Source: Pseudomonadota bacterium (GTDB lineage: Bacteria > Bdellovibrionota > FAC87 > UBA2466). From it: 33,537 nt of DNA. This document shows, in pieces, positions 3,139 through 26,769 of the stretch. The translations under genes and the position numbers were made by a program. The stretch's first letter is position 1. The number at the start of each line of letters is the position of its first letter. The DNA lies in the NCBI GenBank assembly GCA_043767805.1, contig JAYUGC010000074.1, positions 1 to 33,537 of the forward strand, written 5' to 3'. The notes below the pieces were generated by a model that was not told where the DNA came from, ran no database searches, and was given only the letters and a program-made list of their open reading frames with translations.

Positions 3139-4170
3139 TTAAGCGCCGCGGCTCTGTTTCGGATTGGCGGCTTCGTTACTGCGAGCAGACGAGGACAGCG
3201 TTTTCAGCTCTTTCTTGATCTCGCGGGCGTACGGACCCATCGGATCTAAGGTAAGCGCTCTTTCGAGAAAGCCGACGGCATTAGTCGCTTCGCCAAGCTT
3301 CGCGTAATTGCGCCCGACGTAGAGGTACGTTTCGGCGAGATCCGCGTGAGCTCCCGAGGGAGCGGATGAAATCGAATCGAAAAGCGCTTTCTGAGAGTTC
3401 GCGAGATCGCCCAAGCGATGGAGCAAAATGCCCTCGAGCCGCGGCAAATAGTAACCCGCGTACAGGGTTCTTTCGGGGCCGAGCTGCTCTTGCGATCGTT
3501 TCAGAAGGCTCGCTTTCGCCGCTTGAATAAGAAGAGCCGCGCGAGGCGGCGTTTGATTGCGGTAGAGCAAGAGTTTAGCGAGCTCGTAGTTCGCCTCGAA
3601 GTCGGACGGGTTCTTTTTCAGAATCTGCTCGTACTGATCGGCCGCGCGATCGAAAGACTGGTCTCGTTCCTTCGCTTTGCCTTGCGCCTCGTAGGCGAGT
3701 CCCAGATAGAAATCGACGCTAGGCGAGCGGCTACTGAACTCTCTCGCCCGGAGTAAGCTTTGGATCGCCTCGTGTGGATGACCAAGCCACACGTGAGCGA
3801 TGCCGACTTGAAGGTAGGCGAGGGATTCGTGCGGCCGTTCTTTCACGAGGCTTTCCGCCACGGTGAGGGCGCGCTCGTGCAGGCCGGTCGCGAGGTAGCA
3901 GTAATAGAGGATGTACTTCGCCCAAGTCTGCTGGGCTTGCGCGTCCAAAAGAAACGCCGCTTCAAATTGATTGATGGCGCGGGGGTAATCGCCTTTCCAG
4001 TAACTGTGAAACCCCTGATCGATGAGCCGCTGATTGAGGCCTGCGGAGCTCTCACTGTAAGAAGCGTTGAGGCGTTTAACAAAAATGGGATCAGCCGTTA
4101 CCATCGGAGCGGGACCGCTTGACGCACAGCTCAGCAGGCACAGAAACACGCTAAGAGACGCTATTTTCAT
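3139..4170 (-). CDS. TPR-repeat lipoprotein
   Basis: Lipobox LLSC; several TPR-like motifs (AYLQVGIAH, FYLGLAYEAQG, YLYVGRNYAKLG...ALTLDP). Confidence 0.85.
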   Translation of the reverse strand: MKIASLSVFLCLLSCASSGPAPMVTADPIFVKRLNASYSESSAGLNQRLIDQGFHSYWKGDYPRAINQFEAAFLLDAQAQQTWAKYILYYCYLATGLHERALTVAESLVKERPHESLAYLQVGIAHVWLGHPHEAIQSLLRAREFSSRSPSVDFYLGLAYEAQGKAKERDQSFDRAADQYEQILKKNPSDFEANYELAKLLLYRNQTPPRAALLIQAAKASLLKRSQEQLGPERTLYAGYYLPRLEGILLHRLGDLANSQKALFDSISSAPSGAHADLAETYLYVGRNYAKLGEATNAVGFLERALTLDPMGPYAREIKKELKTLSSSARSNEAANPKQSRGA

Positions 4171-4301
4171 GGCTCTAGGCTCGCTCAGGTCTTTTGTTTT
4201 GTAACGACGCAGTTCGAAGTTCTTAACCCGCGAACGCGTTCCTCCCGAAAAGGGTGATGTCAGTCCTCACTACCCCCGCTACAACTAATCAGAGGTGTTG
4301 A

Positions 4302-4934
4302 ATGTTTAAAGGTTCATTATTGTTGGCTGCGGCGTGTCTTACTTTCGTCGCTCAAGCGGCCCACCAAGCCCCTCCCGCGGGTTTTGAAGATCCCGTCCTT
4401 TTCGCCAAGCTTTTGAAGGGAAACGTGGTCGTTGAGCAGCTGCCGTCGACCAAGACGGAATTTCGCAGCGTCATTCGCGCGTACTTCAATCGCGTAAGCC
4501 CGGACGCTTACGCGGATCTCTATACGAGCCATAAGAAATGGATCGGCCTTCTTGCGGAAATCAAGGACGCGAAGACGCTTTCCTCGAACAACGAGAAGAC
4601 CGAGCTCTCGTACTGGCTGAAGATGAAGATTTGGTACACGGTCCTGTCGTTTGAGATCGAGCCCGTCGGAAAGCAGAACATCGTGGCCGGAAAAGACGCC
4701 ATTTCCGAGTGGACGCTCAAAAACGAGATTACCAATTACAAAGACAGCCTGACGCTCGCCGAGGAGAGCATCCGTCTCATTCCTTACGAGGGCGGCATTC
4801 TCGTCGAAGACAACGTTCACGTCGTGCTCGCGGCGGAAACGGCGTTTGCCAACACGGTCAGAAAAGAGATCGAAAAGAAGTGGAGCCAGCTGATTGGCGC
4901 GTTCCGCAAATCGCTCGGCGGCGACAATAAATAG
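4302..4934 (+). CDS. Secreted protein, possibly START/SRPBCC fold
   Basis: GAGG RBS, Sec signal peptide ending AQA, helix-grip-like pattern with a long C-terminal helix. The fold is inference. Confidence 0.65.
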   Translation: MFKGSLLLAAACLTFVAQAAHQAPPAGFEDPVLFAKLLKGNVVVEQLPSTKTEFRSVIRAYFNRVSPDAYADLYTSHKKWIGLLAEIKDAKTLSSNNEKTELSYWLKMKIWYTVLSFEIEPVGKQNIVAGKDAISEWTLKNEITNYKDSLTLAEESIRLIPYEGGILVEDNVHVVLAAETAFANTVRKEIEKKWSQLIGAFRKSLGGDNK

Positions 4935-6244: not shown

Positions 6245-7444
6245 CTAAACCCGCTTTTTCCAGCGGAGCGTGATGAACCAGCCGAGCACGAGGATGAGGC
6301 TTCCGAGGAAGTAGGGCGAGCCAGGTAAGTAGTTTGGGCTCGCTCTATCGGAGGTGAGCGAGAAAAGCGTCGTCATGATGAGCGGATTCAAGATCGAGGT
6401 CAGGCTCATCACGCTCATGAGCGCGCCTTGGAACTCGCCTTGCTCGGTCTCGGGGACTTCTTTCGTAATAAGCGCCTGAAGGGCGGGGTTCGCGGCCCAG
6501 AAAATCGATCCGACGGCGAGAATCGCGATCATCATCCAGCCGTGCGACGAGACCCCGAAGAGGAAGAAGCTGATCGCCTCGCCGAAGCAGCCGAAGATGA
6601 CGAGATTGATCTCACCGAAGCGTTTGACGAGGGGGCCCGTGAGTCCTCCTTGTGAGATGGCGCTCAGGATTCCCACGACGGCGAGCGAGATGCCGACCTC
6701 GGTCGGCCCCCAATTGTAGCGGTGCTTCGTATAAAGCGTCCACATCGTCGGGTGCGTTTGTCCCGCGAGGTTCAGCAAAAAGAAAATCCAGACGAGAGTG
6801 CCAACGCCTCTGAACCGGCCCAAAGCTTTCAGCGCGTGAAAGGGGTTCAAGGCCTTGGCGTCGAACTTCCGGCGCTTGTCTTTCGGAAGGGATTCCGGGA
6901 GAACGAAAAAACCGAAAATGAAGTTCAGGAAATTGAACGCCGCCGCCGCGAGAAACGGCCACTGCGCTCCGTGGGAGGCGAGCAGGCCGCCAATGGCGGG
7001 GCCGATGATGAAACCCAGGCCGAAGCCCGCTCCGATGACGCCGAAATTCTTGGAGCGGTTCGAGTCGTCGCTGATGTCGGCGATGTAGGCGTTGGCGACG
7101 GTGAAGCTCGCGCCGCTGATCCCGGAAATGATGCGGCCGAGGAAAAGAAGCGGCAAGGTTGGCGCGAACGCCATGAAGAGATAGTCGACGCCGGCGCCGA
7201 GTAAGGACAGTAGGAGTACCGGTCGGCGGCCGTACTGATCGGAGAGCCGTCCCAGGATGGGGGAGGTGGCGAATTGGAGGATGGCGTAGAGCGCGATGAA
7301 GTAACCGAAGGTGCGCGAGACCGACGCTTCGTCGGTGATGAACCGGCGGACCACGTCGGGAAGCACCGGAATGATGATACCGAGGCCGATGGCGTCGATG
7401 GCCAGCGTCACGAAGATGAAAAGAATGCTGGCTTTGCGGTTCAT
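6245..7444 (-). CDS. TCR/Tet-family (DHA1) MFS efflux transporter
   Basis: DAIGLGIIIPVLP, motif A GRLSDQYGRRPVLL, motif C GFGLGFIIGPAIGG; about 12 TM segments. Confidence 0.92.
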   Translation of the reverse strand: MNRKASILFIFVTLAIDAIGLGIIIPVLPDVVRRFITDEASVSRTFGYFIALYAILQFATSPILGRLSDQYGRRPVLLLSLLGAGVDYLFMAFAPTLPLLFLGRIISGISGASFTVANAYIADISDDSNRSKNFGVIGAGFGLGFIIGPAIGGLLASHGAQWPFLAAAAFNFLNFIFGFFVLPESLPKDKRRKFDAKALNPFHALKALGRFRGVGTLVWIFFLLNLAGQTHPTMWTLYTKHRYNWGPTEVGISLAVVGILSAISQGGLTGPLVKRFGEINLVIFGCFGEAISFFLFGVSSHGWMMIAILAVGSIFWAANPALQALITKEVPETEQGEFQGALMSVMSLTSILNPLIMTTLFSLTSDRASPNYLPGSPYFLGSLILVLGWFITLRWKKRV

Positions 7445-8095: not shown

Positions 8096-9274
8096 ATGGA
8101 AATCCAAAAACAAGGCACGGCCCACTCGGAAAATCGGCAGAAGGCAGTATCGGTAGCGCTAGACGCCATCGAAAAACAGTTTGGCAAAGGCGCCATCATG
8201 AAATTGGGCGACAAGGCCCTTTCCATGGACCTGGGAGTCATCCCCACGGGATCCATCTCTCTCGACTTGGCCCTCGGCATCGGCGGCTTGCCCCGCGGCC
8301 GAATCGTGGAAATCTACGGACCGGAATCTTCCGGTAAAACGACCATCGCTTTGAACACCGTCGCTCAAGCGCAGAAGCTCGGCGGCGTCGCGGCCTTCAT
8401 CGATGCCGAGCACGCGCTCGACGTGGTGTACGCAAAGAAGCTCGGCGTGAACACGGACGAGCTACTCATCTCGCAGCCGGACACCGGTGAACAAGCTTTG
8501 GAGATTTGCGAAATCCTCGTGCGCAGCGGCGGCGTGGACGTCATCGTCATCGACTCGGTCGCGGCCCTCGTGCCGCGCGCGGAGCTGGAAGGCGAGATGG
8601 GAGATAGCCACATGGGTCTCCAGGCGCGTCTCATGTCGCAAGCGCTTCGTAAACTGACGGGCTGCATTAGCAAATCCAAGACCTGCGTCATCTTCATCAA
8701 CCAGCTCCGCATGAAGATCGGCGTCATGTTCGGTAACCCCGAGACCACCACGGGCGGTAACGCTCTGAAATTCTACTCTTCCATCCGCCTCGATATCCGT
8801 CGCGTGTCGGCTCTGAAGAAGGGTGAGGAAGTCACCGGTAGCCGGACGCGCATCAAGGTCGTGAAGAACAAGATGGCGCCTCCGTTTAAGTCGGTGGAAT
8901 TCGACATGATCTTCGGAGAAGGCTTGTCCATGGAAGGCGAAGTCCTCGACTTGGCCTTGGCGCAGAACATCATCGACAAGAGCGGCGCTTGGTTTGCCTT
9001 CGAAGGCGAGAAGCTCGGACAGGGCCGTGAGAACACCCGGATTTTCCTCAAGGAAAACCCCCAGTTCGTCGATAAGTTGCGTAAGAAGATCGAAGAGAAA
9101 GTCGCCAAGGAAAACCCCCTGATGTTGGGGCGTTTGACTACGGCGAACGCGAGCGCTGAAGAAGCGGCGGACGACGAGGATGAGCTCGATGATAACGAGG
9201 GATCCAAAACTAACGCCGGAGAAAAAGCAGGCCGCGCTCCTGCAGCTCGAGGTAATTCTAAAAAAGGCCACTGA
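8096..9274 (+). CDS. recA: Recombinase RecA with a long acidic/basic C-terminal tail
   Basis: [52 protein letters not shown]. Confidence 0.99.
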
Positions 9275-10502
9275 AAAAGGGGCCTCCGATCTCCATTTAA
9301 AAGCCGGCCTTCCCCCGATCGTTCGGGTGAATGGCCGGCTTTACTATTTGGGCGATGACGCCGCCGATGACGTCTCTCGCCTGACCAATCCGCTCCTTTT
9401 CCAATTCGCTTATGCCCTCATGACCGAGCGCCAAGCCGAGCGCTATGAGAACGGCGAGGAAGTGGATCTCGGTTACGAAATCCCGGGAGCCGGGCGTTTC
9501 CGTATCAACCTCTGTCAGCAGCGCTCGAACCCGCGCTTGGTCTGCCGCTATATTCCCGACGTCATTCCGTCCTTCGACGAGCTCTGCTTGCCGTCGGTCG
9601 TGGGCGAGCTCGCGATGGTAAAACGCGGCCTCATTCTGGTTACGGGCGCGACGGGTAGCGGAAAGTCGACGACGCTTGCGGCCCTTATCGATCAAATTGC
9701 GAGAAACCGTTCCTGCCACATCGTCACCATTGAAGATCCCATCGAGTTCGTCTTCAAAGATCGTAAAAGCATCGTCACCCAGCGGGAAGTAGGCCTCGAT
9801 ACGAGAAGTTTCGTCGACGCTTTGAAGTACGCCCTTCGCCAAGATCCCGACGTGATTCTGGTGGGCGAGATGCGCGACTACGAAACGATTCACATGGCTT
9901 TGAACGCCGCGGAGACGGGTCACTTGGTGCTTTCCACTTTGCACACTGTGGATGCTCCCGAGACCATCAACCGCATTCTCGGCACCGTTCCGGGAGACGT
10001 TCAGCAGGCGGTGCGCTCGCAGCTCGCTTCCGTCATCGTCGGCGTCCTGTCCCAGCGCCTCCTTCGCCGCGCGGATGGCAAGGGCCGGATTCCCGCTCTG
10101 GAAATTTTGCTCAAGAACCAGCGCATCACCGACATGATTCTCGATCCGGCACGCACCAAAGATCTTCAGCGCGCCATCGGCGAGAGCCAAAGCTCGGGCA
10201 TGCAGACTTTCGATCAATCTCTCATGGGCCTCTTCCAGCAGGGCCGTATCACCAAGGAAGAAGCGCTCAACTACTGCTCCAACGTGCGTGATTTCCAGCT
10301 GCGTCTCGCGGGTATCGTGTCGGGAGACTGGCGCGAGAAGGAAGCGAGAGAGCAGCAGAAAGAAACAAGCCGCGCCGATCAGATCCAGCAAGTGCTCGAC
10401 TCCGAGAATGAAGAGCACAAGATCGAGATCGAAGGCCTCGCTACTGTTCCCGAGGAAACGGTCCTCGCGAAGCCCAAGGGCTTCTTCAAAGCGAAGAAAT
10501 AG
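9189..10502 (+). CDS. pilT: PilT/PilU-family type IV pilus retraction ATPase
   Basis: GASDLHL, Walker [53 protein letters not shown]. The likely start is ATG 9189 (GAGGA at 9176-9180). Confidence 0.92.
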
Positions 10503-11508
10503 AGTCGCCGACGCCCCGTTTGTAGAGAAAACCCACTTCGTCGACCACGTAACGGGGGACGAGGTAGCCGCTCAGCCGCGCCCTTAGGTCGTGATGGATT
10601 TGTAAGCCGCGCTCGCGCGAGACGTCGAAGTGCGCGGTTCCCGCCGCCCGATCGGGATGGTGGAGGTAGTAGGGAAGAATCCCAATCTCAAAAAGCTTTT
10701 CGCTGAGCTCCGCCAGGGTCTCGCGGCTGTCGTTTACGTCTTTGAGTAAAACCGACTGATTCAGCATCATCGCGGCGACTTGTTTTAGTCGCGAGCAAGC
10801 GGCCGAAGCTGCCTCGGTGATTTCCTTGCCGTGATTGAAATGAGTCACGAGCACCACTGGAAGGCGAGTCGAAGCGATGGCTCGCGCGAGGGCGTCCGTA
10901 ACTCGAGCCGGAAAGGTGACCGGTACTCGAGTGTGAATGCGCAAGCGCTTCACATGAGGGAGGGCGGCCAAAGCCGAAATGAGGTGCCGAAGCGTGAGGT
11001 CGGTCACCAAGAAGGGATCGCCTCCGGAGAGAATCACTTCTTCGACTTCGGGATGTTCGGCGAGATATCCCAAAGGCTCGGAAAAATCTCCTCCGAACAA
11101 GTCGGTCCGGAGCTCGTTCAAGAGGGACTTACGAAAACAGTAGCGGCAATAAAGCGAGCAATTGGGCGTCAGATGGAAAAGCGCGCGGCCCTGATAGCGG
11201 TGCGTGATACGCGGGGCCGGCTGGTGTTCCAAATCGGACAAAGGATCAGCCTTGAAACCCTCTACTTCGATGAGCTCCTCCAGGGCCGGAATGGCCTGAA
11301 GGCGGATGGGGCACTTGGGGTTCTTCGGATCGATGAGCTCCGCGTAGTAGCGCGGGAGGGAAAACTTGAACTTTTTCAGAACTCTATCGAGTCCGGCGGC
11401 CCTCTCTGGCGGTACCAGGCCGGCCTCCACCAGGTCTTCAGCCGAACGGAGGTTTCTCGCCCATTCCAGCTGCCAGGACGTTTCGGGGAGGGGGAGGGCC
11501 GGTTCCAT
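10486..11508 (-). CDS. KamA-family radical SAM protein, EpmB-like (short type)
   Basis: CSLYCRYCFRK, ILSGGDP, RIHTRVPV, NQSVLL, PYYLH, LSGYLVP. ATG 11508 is preferred over TTG 11526. Confidence 0.88.
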   Translation of the reverse strand: MEPALPLPETSWQLEWARNLRSAEDLVEAGLVPPERAAGLDRVLKKFKFSLPRYYAELIDPKNPKCPIRLQAIPALEELIEVEGFKADPLSDLEHQPAPRITHRYQGRALFHLTPNCSLYCRYCFRKSLLNELRTDLFGGDFSEPLGYLAEHPEVEEVILSGGDPFLVTDLTLRHLISALAALPHVKRLRIHTRVPVTFPARVTDALARAIASTRLPVVLVTHFNHGKEITEAASAACSRLKQVAAMMLNQSVLLKDVNDSRETLAELSEKLFEIGILPYYLHHPDRAAGTAHFDVSRERGLQIHHDLRARLSGYLVPRYVVDEVGFLYKRGVGDSISSL

Positions 11509-11578
11509 CCGCTGGGGGTACCACAAAACCGATTCCTAGTGTAGATTCCGTGCTTTGAAATTCCCCAAGGGGTAGTTC

Positions 11579-12955
11579 ATGACCGAGCAGAAAACACATC
11601 AAGGCGCCGCTCCCCAGCCCTACTCATATAAGTACACCACCGATTTTCGTGAGCCCGACTGGCGCCGCTTGCCGGGTTACAAAACCGTAACCGAAGCCGA
11701 ATGGAACGATGCCCTCTGGCAGCGCCGGAATATGGTGAAAAACGTTCCTCAGCTCAAAGCCGTGTTCGGCGATTTTCTGAACGACGAGCTCGCGAACGAC
11801 ATGCTCGCGGACCAGAAGCAGATGGCCACCATGGCCATGCTCATTCCGCCCCAGATGGTCAACACCATGAACGAAAAGGATCTCAAAAAAGATCCCATTC
11901 GCAATTACATGGCGCCGGTCCTTTCCGACCGCGAAAAAGTTTGGCCGAGCCATCCCATGGCGAGCCGGGACAGCCTTCACGAGCACGACATGTGGGCCGT
12001 CGAAGGGCTCACGCACCGCTACCCGACGAAAGTTCTCGCGGAAATTCTTTCAACCTGTCCCCAGTACTGCGGCCATTGCACCCGCATGGATCTAGTAGGC
12101 CAGAGCGTGCCTCAGGTCGATAAGCGGAAGTTCGCGACGGGACAAAAAGATCGTCTTCTCTTGATGCTCGATTATCTGAGAAAGACGCCCACCGTTCGGG
12201 ACGTCGTCGTTTCGGGGGGCGATATCGCCAATATGCCGGCGGCCGTTCTCGAAGAGTTCATCTCGAGCCTTCTCGACATCGAGAACATCCGGGACATCCG
12301 GTTGGCCAGTAAAGGCATGGCGGGCTTACCCCAGCATTTTCTCCAAGACGAAGTGCTCACGGCTTTCGACCGCATGGCGAAGAAAGCCATTTCTCGCGGG
12401 GTTTCCCTCGCGCTGCATACGCATATCAACCACGCGCAAAGCATCACGCCGCTCGTCGCGAAAGTCGCGCGTAAGCTTCTCGATATGGGCTTCCGTGATG
12501 TCCGTAACCAGGGCGTGTTGCTCAGAGGCGTGAACGATTCTCCGAAGCTTCTCCTGGATCTGTGTTTCAGGCTCATCGATCACGCGTGGATTACGCCGTA
12601 TTACTTCTACATGTGCGACATGATCCCGAACTCCGAGCATTGGCGCGTTTCGGTCGCCCGCGCTCAGAGTATTCAGCACGATATGATGGGCTACTTGCCC
12701 GGTTTTAATACCCCGCGCCTTCTGTGCGACGTGCCGTTCGTCGGTAAGCGCTGGGTCCACCAGATTCATTCTTACGATAAAGTGAAGGGCATCTCTTACT
12801 GGACGAAGAATTACCTGACCAGCATCGAGAAGGATCAGCCCGAGGCGCTCAACAAATTGTACGAGTACTACGATCCTATCGATACGCTCCCCTCCGAAGG
12901 CCAGGAATTCTGGCGCAAAGAGGGCGAGCGCTTCAAAAACGAGAAGAACCACTGA
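11579..12955 (+). CDS. kamA: Lysine 2,3-aminomutase-like radical SAM protein (long type)
   Basis: EGLTHRYPTKVL, CPQYCGHCTR, VVVSGGD, RNQGVLLRGVND, PYYFYMCD, DVPFVGK. Confidence 0.85.
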   Translation: MTEQKTHQGAAPQPYSYKYTTDFREPDWRRLPGYKTVTEAEWNDALWQRRNMVKNVPQLKAVFGDFLNDELANDMLADQKQMATMAMLIPPQMVNTMNEKDLKKDPIRNYMAPVLSDREKVWPSHPMASRDSLHEHDMWAVEGLTHRYPTKVLAEILSTCPQYCGHCTRMDLVGQSVPQVDKRKFATGQKDRLLLMLDYLRKTPTVRDVVVSGGDIANMPAAVLEEFISSLLDIENIRDIRLASKGMAGLPQHFLQDEVLTAFDRMAKKAISRGVSLALHTHINHAQSITPLVAKVARKLLDMGFRDVRNQGVLLRGVNDSPKLLLDLCFRLIDHAWITPYYFYMCDMIPNSEHWRVSVARAQSIQHDMMGYLPGFNTPRLLCDVPFVGKRWVHQIHSYDKVKGISYWTKNYLTSIEKDQPEALNKLYEYYDPIDTLPSEGQEFWRKEGERFKNEKNH

Positions 12956-18893: not shown

Positions 18894-18969
18894 TGGTGCC
18901 CCCAACCGGATTCGAACCGGTGTTTTAGCCGTGAGAGGGCCACGTCCTAGGCCTCTAGACGATGGGGGC
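18894..18969 (-). tRNA. tRNA-Glu (anticodon CTC)
   Basis: 76-nt cloverleaf GCCCCCATCGTCTAGAGGCCTAGGAC...; anticodon loop CTCTCAC, GGTTCGAATCC T-arm, encoded CCA. Confidence 0.97.
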
Positions 18970-22765: not shown

Positions 22766-23329
22766 TTAATGATTTCTATGTAGGTACCAACTTAACGCGA
22801 CAAAGTCATAAAGCGCGTGGGCGAAAGCGGGCGCGAGCCATCCGCCGGAATGTACTTGCAGAGCTCCCAACGCGACTCCGATGATCGCCGTGCAGACCGC
22901 GTAACCTCTCGTAATTGAATGAGCCGCGCCGAAAACGATTCCTGCCAGCAAGCAGGATAGGGGAAGGCTTACGAAGTTTTCCAGCCAGCTCTGAAGCCAC
23001 CCTCGAAAGAGCGCTTCCTCTCCCAAACCGGCGAGGGCGGAAACCGTTAACAAACCCAGCGGTCCGAGGCCGAAAAACAACGGGCGCGCTCGCTCGTCGA
23101 GGAAAAATCGTATTTTTCGGAGGGGCGCGTAGGAAGATCGGTAGGTGAATTGGAAGGCGATAAAGCCCACTCCAGCGAGTCCTAACGCGACGGCCCACCC
23201 CGAAACGGTGGAGTGAAAACGGCTGAGTAGGGGAACGTTCGTCAGTTGCGCGAGGAGAGCCGCTACTAAGAAGAGAGAGCCTTCGAACGCGCCAATGAGA
23301 GCCAGGCGCCTGCCTGCTTCGCGCGTCAT
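22766..23329 (-). CDS. CPBP (CAAX/Abi) family intramembrane protease
   Basis: GEEALFRG, FGAAH, HALYD. ATG 23329 overlaps the upstream stop (ATGA). Confidence 0.9.
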   Translation of the reverse strand: MTREAGRRLALIGAFEGSLFLVAALLAQLTNVPLLSRFHSTVSGWAVALGLAGVGFIAFQFTYRSSYAPLRKIRFFLDERARPLFFGLGPLGLLTVSALAGLGEEALFRGWLQSWLENFVSLPLSCLLAGIVFGAAHSITRGYAVCTAIIGVALGALQVHSGGWLAPAFAHALYDFVALSWYLHRNH

Positions 23330-24054
23330 CGCTTCGCGCCGGCAGTGGGCGAGAACGCGCCCTTCACCTGAAACTCGCCCGGACGGGCGGCCAAAACGTC
23401 TTTTTGGGTGAGCAGGTTCTCGAAGCGCCACCGATCGCGCTCCGCTTCGTCCGCGAAGCCGATGGCGACCGTGAGGCCGGTCATCTTCTTGTCGCTCCAT
23501 TCGGTGAACTCACGCTGAGTGACGTTGAGAGTGAAACGCGTGGGCTTTCCGGGAACGACGGTGAAGACCTGAGACGTTTTCAAAACTTTTACGTTGAGCC
23601 CCAGCCGGCCGAAGATGACGCCATTGATCGCGAGCGTACGATTCATGGTGTCGAGGTTATAAGCTTCGAACGAAACCGAGCCGGGACCCGTCAGTTTTCC
23701 GTCGTAGTGAAGTGTGCCCGAACTTTGCGTCCGTGCGCTGGACACCGAGCCTGGGCGAGAAGGCGCCCGTCCGTCGTCGCTCTCGGCGCTAGTTTCCGCC
23801 GATTCCGCGGTCCCCCCCGCGCCTTTCGCGCAAGCCCCCGAGCGAGCGATACAGTGGACGGTTTCGCATTTAGCGAGGCAGCCGGGATCGGTATGATCTT
23901 TTTTCGTCGGGCATTGCTCGAAACAGTTCCAGTAAGCCGGGCGGCAGCAGAGCGCCATGCCGGAAGTGCCCGCGACTTCTTCGGCCGCGGGGCCTTCGGC
24001 GCGCGCGTCCAGAGCGAGGAGTAAAAGCAGGGAAACGACGTGAAACCGGCTCAT
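23326..24054 (-). CDS. Secreted protein with Cys-rich N-terminal domain, linker and beta-rich C-terminal domain
   Basis: Signal peptide MSRFHVVSLLLLLALDARA; 8 Cys within ~40 aa; coupled to the CPBP gene. Confidence 0.7.
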   Translation of the reverse strand: MSRFHVVSLLLLLALDARAEGPAAEEVAGTSGMALCCRPAYWNCFEQCPTKKDHTDPGCLAKCETVHCIARSGACAKGAGGTAESAETSAESDDGRAPSRPGSVSSARTQSSGTLHYDGKLTGPGSVSFEAYNLDTMNRTLAINGVIFGRLGLNVKVLKTSQVFTVVPGKPTRFTLNVTQREFTEWSDKKMTGLTVAIGFADEAERDRWRFENLLTQKDVLAARPGEFQVKGAFSPTAGAKR

Positions 24055-24075
24055 GAGTTGGGATATTATCCGGCC

Positions 24076-24336
24076 ATGGACAAAGAAGCCACCGCCAGAG
24101 AGCTCATCGGCTACCTGACCTCGCATCTGGTCGGTAAAGGAGCGGACCTCGACGGAAAGACGTCACTCTTCGAGGGACGGCTTCTCGATTCGATTCGTCT
24201 CATGGAGCTCATCGATCACGTCGAGAAATGCTACGACGTGTGGGTGGCCCCCATGGAGATCGTGCTGGAGAACTTCGATTCCGTGGACAGGATAATAGGC
24301 TTTTTGGAAAGAAAGCACGCGCCCCGCGACGCCTAG
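24076..24336 (+). CDS. Acyl/aminoacyl carrier protein (DltC-like)
   Basis: 86 aa; SLFEGRLLDSIRLMELI (phosphopantetheine Ser) and ENFDSV. Confidence 0.9.
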   Translation: MDKEATARELIGYLTSHLVGKGADLDGKTSLFEGRLLDSIRLMELIDHVEKCYDVWVAPMEIVLENFDSVDRIIGFLERKHAPRDA

Positions 24337-24467
24337 AACTCCATGTAGCGGAAAGGCGCGAGCTGGGTGAGCAAGGCGTAGCCTGCCAGGGCGCCCAAGA
24401 CCAGCAGGGCGGTCATAAGAATTTGCGCCGCGACTCCGAGAGAAAACCAGGGGCGCTGAGGCGTCAT
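24333..24467 (-). CDS. 44-aa single-TM DltX-like peptide with C-terminal FxYxxF motif (below the ORF-track cutoff)
   Basis: MTPQRPWFSLGVAAQILMTALLVLGALAGYALLTQLAPFRYMEF*; GGGGGA RBS; ATGA overlap with the SGNH gene stop. Confidence 0.8.
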   Translation of the reverse strand: MTPQRPWFSLGVAAQILMTALLVLGALAGYALLTQLAPFRYMEF

Positions 24468-25591
24468 GGATTCCCCCACTGAGTGAGAAGCGGCGTTGCC
24501 GACGGCCTCAGGCGCGCGATCGCGCTCGCCAAAGCGTAGTGATAGCGGAGCTTGCCGCCACTGGTGGGCTTTAGGTGCACGGAATCGACGAAATCCTCGG
24601 GAGTAAGCCCAAGGGTCCAGGCGAGATCCAGGTACTCGATGCCCTCGGTTTCGGCGAGCGCTCGCGTGAACGCGCTTATCACTTCCACTTTCGCGGGAAT
24701 CAAGCGGCGGAAATCGGGGTTCATCGGAGTTTCGAAAAGAGCGACTCGGTAGCCTTTGGCGCGCGCGATCTGAATGGCCTCGGCCAGAAGCTCGAAGGAC
24801 TCGAGATAGGCATTTTTTCTCTCAAAAAGATGATGGCGCAAGCTCTCCGGCTTGAGACGCGGGCTACTCTCGCGGGAAAACGCGAGAGAAGGCACGGGCG
24901 CGCCTTCGACGTAAGCGAGTTGTTTCGCTTCTTCCCGTTTCGGCCACACGCTCCACTCGGGGATCTTACCGGAGAGTAAGTGCTTTCGGTTCATGGGAAG
25001 GTAGAGGCGCAGGTAGTTCACGAAAGCTGGAAGCACGAAACGAAACCGCCAGCCACTCTCCCCGCGGCTCTCCGCGTAGCGCGCGACCGTTGGCGATGCG
25101 AGCATGAGGTGGCTGGTGCGCGCCGCTTTCGCGACATCGGCGGAACGCTCGCGAAAGCGCATGGCGGTGGTCGCAATCAGCACGAGTCCCCGTCCCGGGG
25201 GCAAGTTCTCGATGATTTGCACGGTCTCCGCCATGGCTTGTGTCGGCGTGTGCAAAGTTATGACTTCGGGCGGCTCCTTTTTGCCTAAGCGCTCGATGGA
25301 ACGAGTCAGCGCGGACTCCCCGAAATAGGCGTGGTAGAGCGCTGACGAGCCTAATAAGATCACGCGTTCCCGTCCGGGGTGAGCGCGCATTTTGCCGAGG
25401 CGGTACGGGATGTAACTCCACAGATCGTGCGTCCAGATGAGAAAACGCCCGGCGGGAGCGCGAGAGAAAACGAACGAGCGCAACGAAAGTTCCATCCCTC
25501 CCAGAACGAGCCCCGCGACCAGGACGCCCGCCAAAAGGTACCTCGGCCTCGTGTGGCGAAAGCCCGCGAGGAAACTTTGCCGGCGGTTCAT
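24464..25591 (-). CDS. Membrane-anchored SGNH-like acyltransferase (DltD/AlgJ-like)
   Basis: N-terminal TM, VILLGSS and DFVDSVHL (DxxH). ATG 25591 overlaps the MBOAT stop. Confidence 0.8.
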   Translation of the reverse strand: MNRRQSFLAGFRHTRPRYLLAGVLVAGLVLGGMELSLRSFVFSRAPAGRFLIWTHDLWSYIPYRLGKMRAHPGRERVILLGSSALYHAYFGESALTRSIERLGKKEPPEVITLHTPTQAMAETVQIIENLPPGRGLVLIATTAMRFRERSADVAKAARTSHLMLASPTVARYAESRGESGWRFRFVLPAFVNYLRLYLPMNRKHLLSGKIPEWSVWPKREEAKQLAYVEGAPVPSLAFSRESSPRLKPESLRHHLFERKNAYLESFELLAEAIQIARAKGYRVALFETPMNPDFRRLIPAKVEVISAFTRALAETEGIEYLDLAWTLGLTPEDFVDSVHLKPTSGGKLRYHYALASAIARLRPSATPLLTQWGNP

Positions 25592-26769
25592 CCCGCCTCC
25601 TGACTCGGCCACGGGGTGAGACAAGCCGCGAAGAGTGACCAAGCGGAGCTCAGATCTTTTGCCGTCACGAACGCGTAGCCGAGAGCGACGAAGAGGAGGG
25701 TCAGTGGAATACCGACGAGGGAGTCCAGGGCGGGCCGATCTTTCCATGGCCGCCAGCGCCGCCATTTCGCATAAGCGACGAGTCCCGACGCGTGATAACC
25801 GGCCCACGCCACCCAGTTCCAGGAAATTTGATGCCAAAGACCGAGCGTCAGCATCGACGCGTAAGTGGCGATCCAAGGCTTGCGCCAAACTCCGAGCACG
25901 GGAAAATAAACCTGATTCCGGCACCAGTGGGAGAGAGATATGTGCCAGCTCCGCCAGAAATCGGCGAGGTTGGTACGTAGAAAAGGCTTATCGAAATTTT
26001 CGGGGAGCCTATAGCCGAATAGGCCGCCGAGACCCACGGCGATGTCCGTGTACGCCGAGAGATCGAAGAAGGCGTAGAGAAACATCAAGATCACGAAGGC
26101 GAGGGGGGACGCGGGAGGGTAAGTCGCCAGAGCGAGCGAAGGCTGCGAGAGAAAGTCTCGTGTGAAGTCGCCGAACGCGTACTCAAAAAGCCAGCTCACA
26201 AGGAAGAGCTTCTTGAAATAGCCCGTGAGGATCCGGCGCAAACCCTGGGCCGCGCGGTCCCAGTCCCACTGTGGGTTTCTCTGTCCGTAAAAATTCTGAA
26301 ACGTATCGATGGGGCCCGCGGGTAAGGCGGGAAAGAAAAAGAGAAACGCCATGAGCCGGGGCCAGGACGTGTCGGTCAGGGTGCCTCGGTATCTGTCGGC
26401 GGCATATTGAAGCAGGCGAAAAATAAAATAACTGATGCCCAGGGGCGCGAGAAAGTAGCGCTCGAGCCAGGTTCCCGAGGCCAAACGCCCTATGAGCCAC
26501 GGCGCGGCCTTCACCATTGCCAGAATCGCTAGCGAGAACGAGAGCAGAAGCAGGAGCGGCCGGGAGCGGCCGGGTTTGGCGCTCAGGTGAACGAGGGTCG
26601 CGGCGCCCAGCGCGATCGCAGCAAACAGCGGATGGAGCGCCGCGAGAAAGAGAACGGAAGTTATCCAAATCAAATGAGTTCGGGAGTTGGCGCTTCGCAG
26701 CAATATCCAATGAAGCACCAACGTGCCCGCGATGAATAGAAAGAAGCGCGGATCGAGGAAGAGTCCCAT
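25588..26769 (-). CDS. MBOAT O-acyltransferase (DltB/AlgI-like)
   Basis: PLGISYFIF, FFPALPAGPI, DLSAYTDIA, PENFDKPF, FWRSWHISLS, GLWH. Confidence 0.95.
   Translation of the reverse strand: MGLFLDPRFFLFIAGTLVLHWILLRSANSRTHLIWITSVLFLAALHPLFAAIALGAATLVHLSAKPGRSRPLLLLLSFSLAILAMVKAAPWLIGRLASGTWLERYFLAPLGISYFIFRLLQYAADRYRGTLTDTSWPRLMAFLFFFPALPAGPIDTFQNFYGQRNPQWDWDRAAQGLRRILTGYFKKLFLVSWLFEYAFGDFTRDFLSQPSLALATYPPASPLAFVILMFLYAFFDLSAYTDIAVGLGGLFGYRLPENFDKPFLRTNLADFWRSWHISLSHWCRNQVYFPVLGVWRKPWIATYASMLTLGLWHQISWNWVAWAGYHASGLVAYAKWRRWRPWKDRPALDSLVGIPLTLLFVALGYAFVTAKDLSSAWSLFAACLTPWPSQEAG

Follow-up and report, generated by a model that had tools for sequence, protein, structure and literature searches.

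We found that a 44-aa open reading frame in a 33,537-nt stretch of DNA from the Bdellovibrionota (the whole stretch is called the window here) probably encodes an inner-membrane microprotein that acts in trans as an acyl-tyrosine shuttle, as DltX does. We put this reading, in which the microprotein is translated as the third gene of a coupled operon and the donor is most likely a carrier protein encoded beside it, at about 0.75. The relay principle itself is the same as that of the known acyl-tyrosine relay. New are the sequence families of the microprotein and of its SGNH partner and the clade of the MBOAT, as well as the different gene order, the lack of a nearby DltA and the Gram-negative host.

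The acyl-tyrosine relay, which runs from an MBOAT through a shuttle motif to an SGNH protein, was worked out only in 2023-2025, and Schultz et al. (2023) is reportedly the primary paper on the DltX mechanism. As described in the accessible text of PMC12148441, DltB moves D-alanine from DltC onto the invariant Tyr in the C-terminal FXYXXF of DltX, DltX passes the group to the Ser of DltD, and DltD modifies lipoteichoic acid. In PatA-type MBOATs, the same hexapeptide is fused on two extra helices and the donor is acetyl-CoA, and the accessible text says of non-Dlt pathways that they have neither a DltX-like microprotein nor a carrier protein (PMC12148441). The DltX of B. thuringiensis has 48 aa and ends FIYNEF (PMC5541007, accessible sections). 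The available part of PMC13653941 supports the shuttle role and a contact between DltX and DltD, and describes the models of DltB action as still debated.

A short ORF closes a translationally coupled operon

The microprotein ORF is on the minus strand (Table 1) and runs from an ATG at 24467..24465 to a TAG stop at 24335..24333, with the product MTPQRPW...LAPFRYMEF. Its ATG shares bases with the TGA (24466..24464) of the upstream ORF (...QWGNP), forming ATGA, and the start of the SGNH-type gene, which has AGGAGG upstream, is coupled to the MBOAT stop by another ATGA. The gene order is MBOAT, SGNH-type gene and microprotein, with the carrier gene convergent. Hence, with ATGA at both junctions, the MBOAT, the SGNH-type gene and the microprotein form one translationally coupled unit. 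An alternative in-frame GTG at 24479 would give a 48-aa form; the ortholog in a second locus (L001, described below) and three of the four other family members favour a form of 42-46 aa instead.

Residues 6-39 of the microprotein are uncharged, the maximum 19-residue Kyte-Doolittle mean is 2.19, and the C-terminus F-R-Y-M-E-F fits F-x-Y-x-x-F. GC content by codon position is 0.62/0.44/0.78, and the neighbouring genes are alike. The initial annotation had listed a ribosome-binding site, an ATGA-coupled start, one TM helix and the terminal F-x-Y-x-x-F, and had placed the gene after the SGNH gene rather than first as in dltXABCD; all of these features are present, on the minus strand, and the gene is third and last in its operon. 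It had also called the peptide unannotated, but the exact 44-aa sequence is already present in a protein collection (sources NCBI and Logan, 3 contigs). Hence, some pipeline calls the microprotein as a protein.

Promoter and terminator scans around the operon gave no excess over shuffled sequences. Since the count of terminator-like sites (6) is within the shuffle range (5.1 ± 2.3), the hairpin in Table 1 is by itself no evidence.

Table 1. Features of the microprotein locus, with positions in the window.
Feature	Position	Strand	Basis or remark
44-aa single-pass membrane microprotein, putative acyl-tyrosine shuttle (Tyr41)	24333..24467	-	Translation, L001 ortholog, 4 further members, codon-position GC
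Shine-Dalgarno-like GGGGGA	24472..24477	-	4 nt 5' of the microprotein ATG
Terminator-like hairpin, weak	24319..24332	-	Directly 3' of the microprotein stop
86-aa carrier protein (PCP/DltC-like), LLDS phosphopantetheine site	24076..24336	+	Convergent; longest ORF from GTG 24040
375-aa DltD-like SGNH-type protein (MNRRQSF...), N-terminal membrane helix	24464..25591	-	Putative acyl acceptor and final transferase
393-aa short DltB-type MBOAT, catalytic His313 in GLWH	25588..26769	-	Pfam, NCBIfam, PDB, AF2 model

The microprotein is conserved most strictly in its tail

A scan of 185,579 species genomes gave 67 pattern matches and one confirmed locus, L001, in an uncultured Pseudobdellovibrionaceae MAG. 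There, a 44-aa ORF (7107..7241) occupies the corresponding position; CCATGA again forms the junction, and GGAGGAG is upstream. It is identical to the window microprotein at 26 of 44 residues (59%), and the final nine residues are the same. Across these nine sense codons, the two loci differ by three synonymous changes and no non-synonymous change. The opposite strand encodes carrier C-termini that are unrelated between the loci. Hence, with only synonymous changes in the tail codons, it is the microprotein frame that is under constraint. The test that the initial annotation had named, conservation of the ORF and its Tyr in orthologous clusters, came out positive, as the ORF is kept in the one available locus and the Tyr in 6 of 6 family members.

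We searched 1.84 billion representative proteins with a two-sequence profile (E<=0.001) and found four more microproteins of 42-46 aa (E 5.5e-10 to 1.8e-4), which end PFRYMEL, PFRYMEF, PFRYMEY and PFRYEGF. In the six-member alignment, W7, L10, A20, P38, F39, R40 and Y41 are invariant; P38-F39-R40-Y41 is thus kept in 6/6 members, and the last residue is F in four, L in one and Y in one. All six have 42-46 aa with an uncharged stretch of 19-34 residues and a maximum hydropathy of 2.0-2.2, and conservation is strictest in the extramembrane tail, not in the helix. The flanks carry a charge of +1 to +2 on the N-side and -1 to +1 on the C-side in the five of five members examined, a bias that would place the N-terminus in the cytoplasm and the tail PFRYMEF in the periplasm.

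The family is small (6 sequences), and its full genomic context comes from the window and L001. The same gene linkage elsewhere is suggested by weak proxies: one microprotein (P0009) and an SGNH homolog (P0006) have the same source (ENA) and contig size (2439), and another microprotein (P0010) and an MBOAT (P0017) have the same source (Logan), contig count (2) and longest contig (10402). The microprotein ORF is a real, conserved gene, and we infer its translation.

The motif is rare among small ORFs. Of the 2702 ORFs of 20-120 aa that the window and 23 loci contain, 7 end [FWY]xYxx[FWYLM]. Five of the seven are TM microproteins, namely those of the window, L001 and Leptolinea (L003), Listeria DltX (L010) and a DUF5989 member (L022), and two are short, non-TM chance matches. 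Within the window, the one motif-bearing ORF among 344 small ORFs is the microprotein. The scan showed no dltX ORF in a Limosilactobacillus dltABCD plasmid locus (L011). Hence, it can miss true cases.

The MBOAT partner is short and DltB-like

The MBOAT matches Pfam MBOAT (8e-20), and its sole NCBIfam match is DltB (TIGR04091, 4.9e-44), at 151.1 bits and so below the cut-off of 375. Its only PDB sequence matches are DltB (8jem/6bug, E 5e-27), aligned to within ~10 residues of both C-termini. The AF2 model (pLDDT 88.1) has DltB 6bug_C as its best fold match (E 4e-13, TM 0.70), and this ranking is biased towards DltB to the extent that the PDB may hold no AlgI/PatA-type structure. The initial annotation had described the MBOAT as short and as ending ...PWPSQEAG with no motif, and this is borne out: it has the same end point as Listeria DltB in an eight-sequence alignment, and long MBOATs run ~70-80 residues past the DltB end to a terminal F(I/L)Yxx(F/Y). 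H313 (in GLWH) and H276 are invariant in 40/40 aligned relatives and in 8/8 sequences across DltB and the fused forms. The MBOAT is DltB-like in length, in fold and in its missing fused motif, and it is below the DltB equivalog cut-off.

At least 702 relatives match the MBOAT at E<=1e-20. The 120 best-listed of these span 343-483 aa, and the motif is absent from the last 15 residues in all 120. Source pipelines label relatives AlgI, and some relatives are labelled Thermoleophilia. We also surveyed 22 of 183 plasmid records matching the MBOAT, picked for taxonomic spread and not at random. Long MBOATs (460-522 aa) were found in 16 records, with the fused terminal motif in 16/16; five records have DltB-type genes, with a DltX ORF seen only in the complete Listeria operon; and in the remaining one, from Leptolinea (Chloroflexota), an annotated 47-aa TM ORF lies directly upstream of an MBOAT that lacks the motif.

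In a quick maximum-likelihood tree of 40 rows, the 8 fused MBOATs form one clade (SH-aLRT 100) and the 32 motif-less ones are all on the other side. The window MBOAT belongs to a 5-row clade (100), which is nested in a 26-row 'short' clade; the 5 DltB rows are separate from this 'short' clade. The Leptolinea MBOAT has a long branch and an uncertain placement. Hence, given this branch and the quick method, only the main split of the tree is trustworthy.

The second partner has a DltD-like predicted fold

The SGNH-type protein has only 4 homologs among 5.8 billion proteins, and G81-S82-S83 and D336-x-x-H339 are invariant in 5/5 members. The best PDB folds for its AF2 model, which is mediocre (pLDDT 67.5), are those of DltD (6pfx, 6o93, 3bma and 7dxm; E 2e-5 to 1e-4, TM about 0.4), followed by generic SGNH enzymes including PatB. 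At the sequence level, 3/5 members have sub-threshold matches to Pfam Lipase_GDSL_2 (E 0.03-0.075), the family profile against PDB sequences gave noise only and no DltD, and tblastn of the protein on plasmids gave no match. The 'SGNH gene' of the initial annotation thus lacks a significant Pfam match, and its product has the invariant GSS/DxxH residues and a DltD-like predicted fold.

We also considered the microprotein ORF as a broken-off C-terminus of the SGNH-type protein and ruled this out, as the homologs share the same end point and L001 keeps the ATGA junction.

A carrier gene lies convergent to the operon

The carrier gene was absent from the initial annotation. Its stop and that of the microprotein overlap by 4 nt. 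The carrier is below the Pfam PP-binding cut-off (0.0027, 18.4 bits vs 20.8) and below the cut-offs of all NCBIfam ACP models, with DltC at 5e-4 and 16-20 bits vs 52-68. Its best PDB matches are type II carriers (6cxt, 1e-5; PigG, 6.5e-5), with DltC at 0.11. Its LF..LLDS, including the conserved Ser, aligned with two DltC sequences.

The carrier ortholog in L001 is 69% identical, with a C-terminus unrelated to that in the window, and the convergent arrangement with overlapping 3' ends is found in 2/2 loci. The order in L001 is that of the window: a divergent 1220-aa He_PIG-type protein, the MBOAT, the SGNH-like gene, the small ORF and the convergent carrier, and beyond the carrier a Cys-rich secreted protein, a CPBP protease, a kinase and a regulator. 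In the window, the operon has a 1218-aa surface protein next to it. We scanned 27 ORFs of the 33.5-kb window and 8 of the 13-kb L001 locus and found no DltA-like or AMP-binding gene. Hence, with no adenylating enzyme gene at either locus, it is synteny that supports the carrier as the donor.

The microprotein resembles DltX in architecture

Like DltX, which is a microprotein of ~45-50 aa in the accessible texts of PMC12148441 and PMC5541007, the window product has one TM helix and a C-terminal F-x-Y-x-x-F, and genes for a motif-less DltB-type MBOAT, a DltD-type SGNH protein and a small carrier accompany its own. The F, Y, E and F of Listeria DltX (FIYNEF) and of the window microprotein (FRYMEF) are identical. 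Unlike dltX, which comes first, the window gene closes its operon and is coupled to the SGNH gene; the carrier gene runs convergent to it, there is no dltA nearby, motif position 2 is Arg and not Ile, and the host is Gram-negative. Position 2 is Arg in 6/6 family members, and it is Ile or Leu in the 19/19 other motifs seen (16 fused, Listeria DltX, the Leptolinea ORF and one DUF5989 member).

None of the 6 members matches Pfam DltX (PF12459) at E<=10, and the Listeria DltX control gave 1.2e-15 in the same scan. The Pfam scan of the members found no family match at all at E<=10, and NCBIfam at E<=10 gave nothing for the 2/2 members tested. The microprotein was likewise without a match by phmmer against the PDB (E<=10) and by tblastn on plasmids (E<=10), and a word-indexed protein search with it recovered only itself. 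With hhalign, only the last 7 residues of the family and Listeria DltX aligned (E 0.077), and an Atlas search gave a score of 0.88 to a cluster with 15% PF12459 members, which is a lead only. The label 'DltX-like' in the initial annotation holds for architecture, motif and context, but not for membership in the Pfam DltX family.

The initial annotation had also identified the terminal F-x-Y-x-x-F as the motif of DltX and of AlgI/PatA-type MBOATs, in agreement with the accessible text of PMC12148441. In the PatA/AlgI-type enzymes, the same hexapeptide is fused behind a TM helix as the extreme C-terminus, in many cases with a Pro before it (PF-x-Y), and is presumed to relay the acyl group through its Tyr to an SGNH partner in the same way (PMC12148441, accessible text). 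Unlike in these enzymes, the helix and motif in the window are a separate gene product, and the fused enzymes use acyl-CoA, whereas the window encodes a carrier alongside. The hhalign comparison of the microprotein family with eight fused tails covered 17 columns (E 0.018) at a probability of 2.6%, at which homology between the microprotein and the fused tails is not demonstrable.

DUF5989 (PF19451) has a 49-aa TM microprotein ending APFIYTLF in a Sinorhizobium plasmid locus (L022), where it lies beside AlgX-like SGNH genes and the MBOAT has its own fused motif. The hhalign comparison with this member was the best for the microprotein family and better than that with DltX (26 columns, 42% identity, pairwise E 2.3e-4, probability 44%), and 0/6 microprotein members match PF19451 at E<=10. 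In the literature searched, whose coverage is short of most subscription papers, we found no mention of DUF5989.

The Leptolinea sp. HRD-7 plasmid (L003) is like the window in that a TM microprotein, ending WIYQGF, is directly beside a motif-less MBOAT. Unlike the window, its microprotein (annotated as a 47-aa hypothetical protein) is upstream, with no carrier or SGNH gene annotated beside it, and hhalign found no detectable similarity between it and the microprotein family. A further comparison is with the dlt operons of Gram-negative soft-rot enterobacteria (Dickeya, Pectobacterium), in which a small ORF has DltX topology and no sequence similarity to Firmicute DltX (PMC5541007, accessible sections). 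These operons, compared here by description only, are complete and include dltA (PMC5541007, accessible sections), whereas the window has no dltA nearby, and its SGNH-type protein and microprotein are in no named family. Within a literature coverage short of most subscription papers, we found no description of such a microprotein outside dlt operons.

Proposed mechanism and alternative explanations

We infer every chemical step of the mechanism by analogy with DltX and PatA. The carrier would be loaded elsewhere and would offer its thioester to the MBOAT from the cytoplasmic side, and His313 would catalyse transfer of the acyl or aminoacyl group from this donor to the hydroxyl of Tyr41. Next, the tail of the microprotein would swing over to the SGNH protein, which is anchored in the membrane; the Ser82/83-Asp336-His339 site of this protein would accept the group and transfer it to an envelope polymer. 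The two genes are coupled by ATGA, which may keep the microprotein and the SGNH-type protein in step. The proposal of the initial annotation that the microprotein supplies the motif in trans gains support from the conservation of the ORF, from the motif-less DltB-type MBOAT and from the DltD-like partner.

The point on which an alternative carries most weight is the donor: the microprotein may be a shuttle fed by acyl-CoA, as PatA and AlgI are, with the carrier next to it by coincidence or belonging to another pathway. We regard this as doubtful. There is no adenylating enzyme nearby to load the carrier, whose gene is on the opposite strand and outside the operon and whose product is below every curated cut-off, and source pipelines label relatives of this MBOAT AlgI. 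On the other hand, the only NCBIfam match and the best sequence and fold matches of the MBOAT are to DltB, a carrier-fed enzyme; the carrier is syntenic with overlapping 3' ends in 2/2 loci; and it has the LF..LLDS of DltC and is similar to stand-alone aminoacyl carriers. An unlikely alternative is that the microprotein has only a structural or assembly role, bridging the MBOAT and the SGNH protein or stabilising them, with the group passed directly from the MBOAT to the SGNH protein or the acceptor and no acyl-Tyr formed. Conservation and coupling show that the microprotein matters rather than what its chemistry is, no other motif seen has the Arg that is invariant here beside the Tyr, and models of DltB action are still debated (PMC13653941, available part). 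Against this alternative, conservation is strictest outside the membrane, in the tail and not in the helix; DltX and PatA are acylated on the Tyr of the very motif that this tail carries (PMC12148441, accessible text), and the MBOAT has no copy of the motif of its own.

That the microprotein belongs to another class, such as a bacteriocin with MBOAT immunity or DUF5989, with a role unrelated to acyl shuttling, is very improbable. Such a pairing has a precedent in a plasmid locus (L012), where an annotated bactofencin-family bacteriocin gene is directly upstream of a lone DltB homolog, and hhalign gives a better score to the DUF5989 member than to DltX. The microprotein, however, has a TM helix and the shuttle motif, and its gene is coupled to that of an SGNH enzyme rather than to export genes. 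With no leader, no cationic character and this SGNH coupling, we rejected a bacteriocin/immunity pairing like that in L012. Kinship with DUF5989 is compatible with a shuttle role, since DUF5989 ends FIYTLF and is found beside AlgX-like SGNH genes in L022. Least credible of all, and strongly disfavoured, is that the ORF is a chance frame or untranslated 3' operon sequence; it is short and hydrophobic and has no family match, but six members keep the length and share an invariant C-terminal motif, the tail changes are synonymous only, the ATGA coupling and Shine-Dalgarno sequence are conserved, GC by codon position is coding-like, and the motif arises by chance in about 2 of 2702 small ORFs. We therefore retain the reading of the microprotein as an acyl-tyrosine shuttle in trans, most likely fed by the carrier.

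Implications

The window locus does not overturn the known relay mechanism. Together with the Leptolinea example, it would be an in-trans form of the shuttle outside the canonical dlt operon, and in the window this form is in a Gram-negative lineage. Three of the four locus components are in no named family, and the three-gene operon with its carrier offers a compact system for the generality of the shuttle chemistry. The locus raises the questions of which cargo is carried and why an Arg is next to the Tyr.

A wider reading, which we think less likely than not and put forward only as a whole, is that 'split' envelope-acylation systems form a large class beyond the Firmicutes that has gone unrecognised and of which this locus is the first visible part. 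Taken together, its parts would be that each short, motif-less MBOAT depends on a hidden, mostly unnamed acyl-tyrosine microprotein; that the Bdellovibrio-related branch is fed by a peptidyl-carrier-type protein and modifies a Gram-negative envelope polymer with an aminoacyl or some other unusual group rather than acetate; that the invariant Arg beside the Tyr is tuned to the cargo or the acceptor; and that DUF5989 is a third branch of the shuttle-peptide principle. The locus may also point to hundreds of short MBOATs with partner peptides missed by annotation.

An arginine in the putative shuttle motif and a further split arrangement

In the peptide of the window (24333..24467), residue 40, at position 2 of the F-x-Y-x-x-F motif, is arginine, and it is invariant in the family (6/6 members). 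Each of the 19 motifs seen elsewhere (DltX, the Leptolinea and DUF5989 proteins and 16 fused motifs) has isoleucine or leucine at this position.

On the Leptolinea sp. HRD-7 plasmid AP024711.1 (locus L003), a gene for a 47-aa protein lies 5 nt upstream of the gene for an MBOAT that lacks the fused motif. The pair is the second example of a split arrangement beyond the dlt operon of the Firmicutes.

On the Sinorhizobium chiapasense plasmid NZ_CP133152.1 (locus L022), we found a DUF5989 microprotein whose C-terminal end is APFIYTLF; AlgX-like SGNH ORFs adjoin its gene, and a long MBOAT with its own fused motif is encoded 3.2 kb away. DUF5989 presumably resembles the small SxtK-type proteins that neighbour carbamoyltransferases. 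No mention of it appeared in the literature searched. Its members may represent a further family of acyl-tyrosine shuttles.

Three Firmicute plasmids (loci L004, L012 and L014) carry a DltB homolog without dltA, dltC, dltD or dltX, and in one of the three (L012) the homolog lies directly 3' of a bactofencin-family gene. Chromosomal Dlt partners presumably serve these lone homologs.

Genes around the operon

The carrier-protein and Cys-rich protein genes start ~20 nt apart on opposite strands, both in the window and in L001, the orthologous locus of a Pseudobdellovibrionaceae MAG. A sigma-70-like match (24040..24069, + strand) ends 7 nt before the carrier ATG, so the carrier mRNA would be nearly leaderless; sigma-70-like matches in the promoter scan were no more numerous than expected by chance.

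About 11 kb from the carrier-protein gene is a KamA-family gene, adjoined by another radical SAM gene; the aminomutase-like product of the KamA-family gene could supply a beta-amino acid. The gene for a polytopic membrane protein, which matched nothing in Pfam or NCBIfam, lies a short way downstream of tRNA-Glu(CTC).

The operon flanks hold the same three genes in the window and L001, encoding a repeat protein, a Cys-rich protein and a CPBP protease. Together, these may constitute a surface-protein sorting module.

Features of the window and of the plasmid loci compared
Locus	Feature	Position	Strand	Remarks
L003	Annotated hypothetical protein, 47 aa	4271..4414	+	One TM helix; ends PLWIYQGF
L003	MBOAT, 483 aa	4419..5870	+	
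L022	DUF5989 TM microprotein	8299..8559	+	PF19451, E 2e-24; start likely ~8410
L012	Annotated bactofencin-family bacteriocin	3447..3596	+	
L012	Lone DltB homolog	3668..4855	+	
L004	Lone DltB homolog	3689..4855	+	
L014	Lone DltB homolog	3689..4891	+	
Window	Radical SAM	10486..11526	-	
Window	KamA-family radical SAM aminomutase-like	11579..12955	+	Lysine 2,3-aminomutase model 5.6e-57, below cut-off
Window	tRNA-Glu(CTC)	18894..18969	-	
Window	Polytopic membrane protein, 611 aa	19023..20858	+	
Window	CPBP/Rce1-like intramembrane protease	22766..23500	-	Weak myxosortase-family matches
Window	Cys-rich secreted protein	23326..24054	-	No family; start at 24054
Window	Carrier-protein 5' region	24040..24076	+	
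Window	He_PIG/Big_9/cadherin-like repeat protein, 1218 aa	26863..30519	+	Divergent; weak similarity to myxosortase-dependent protein model
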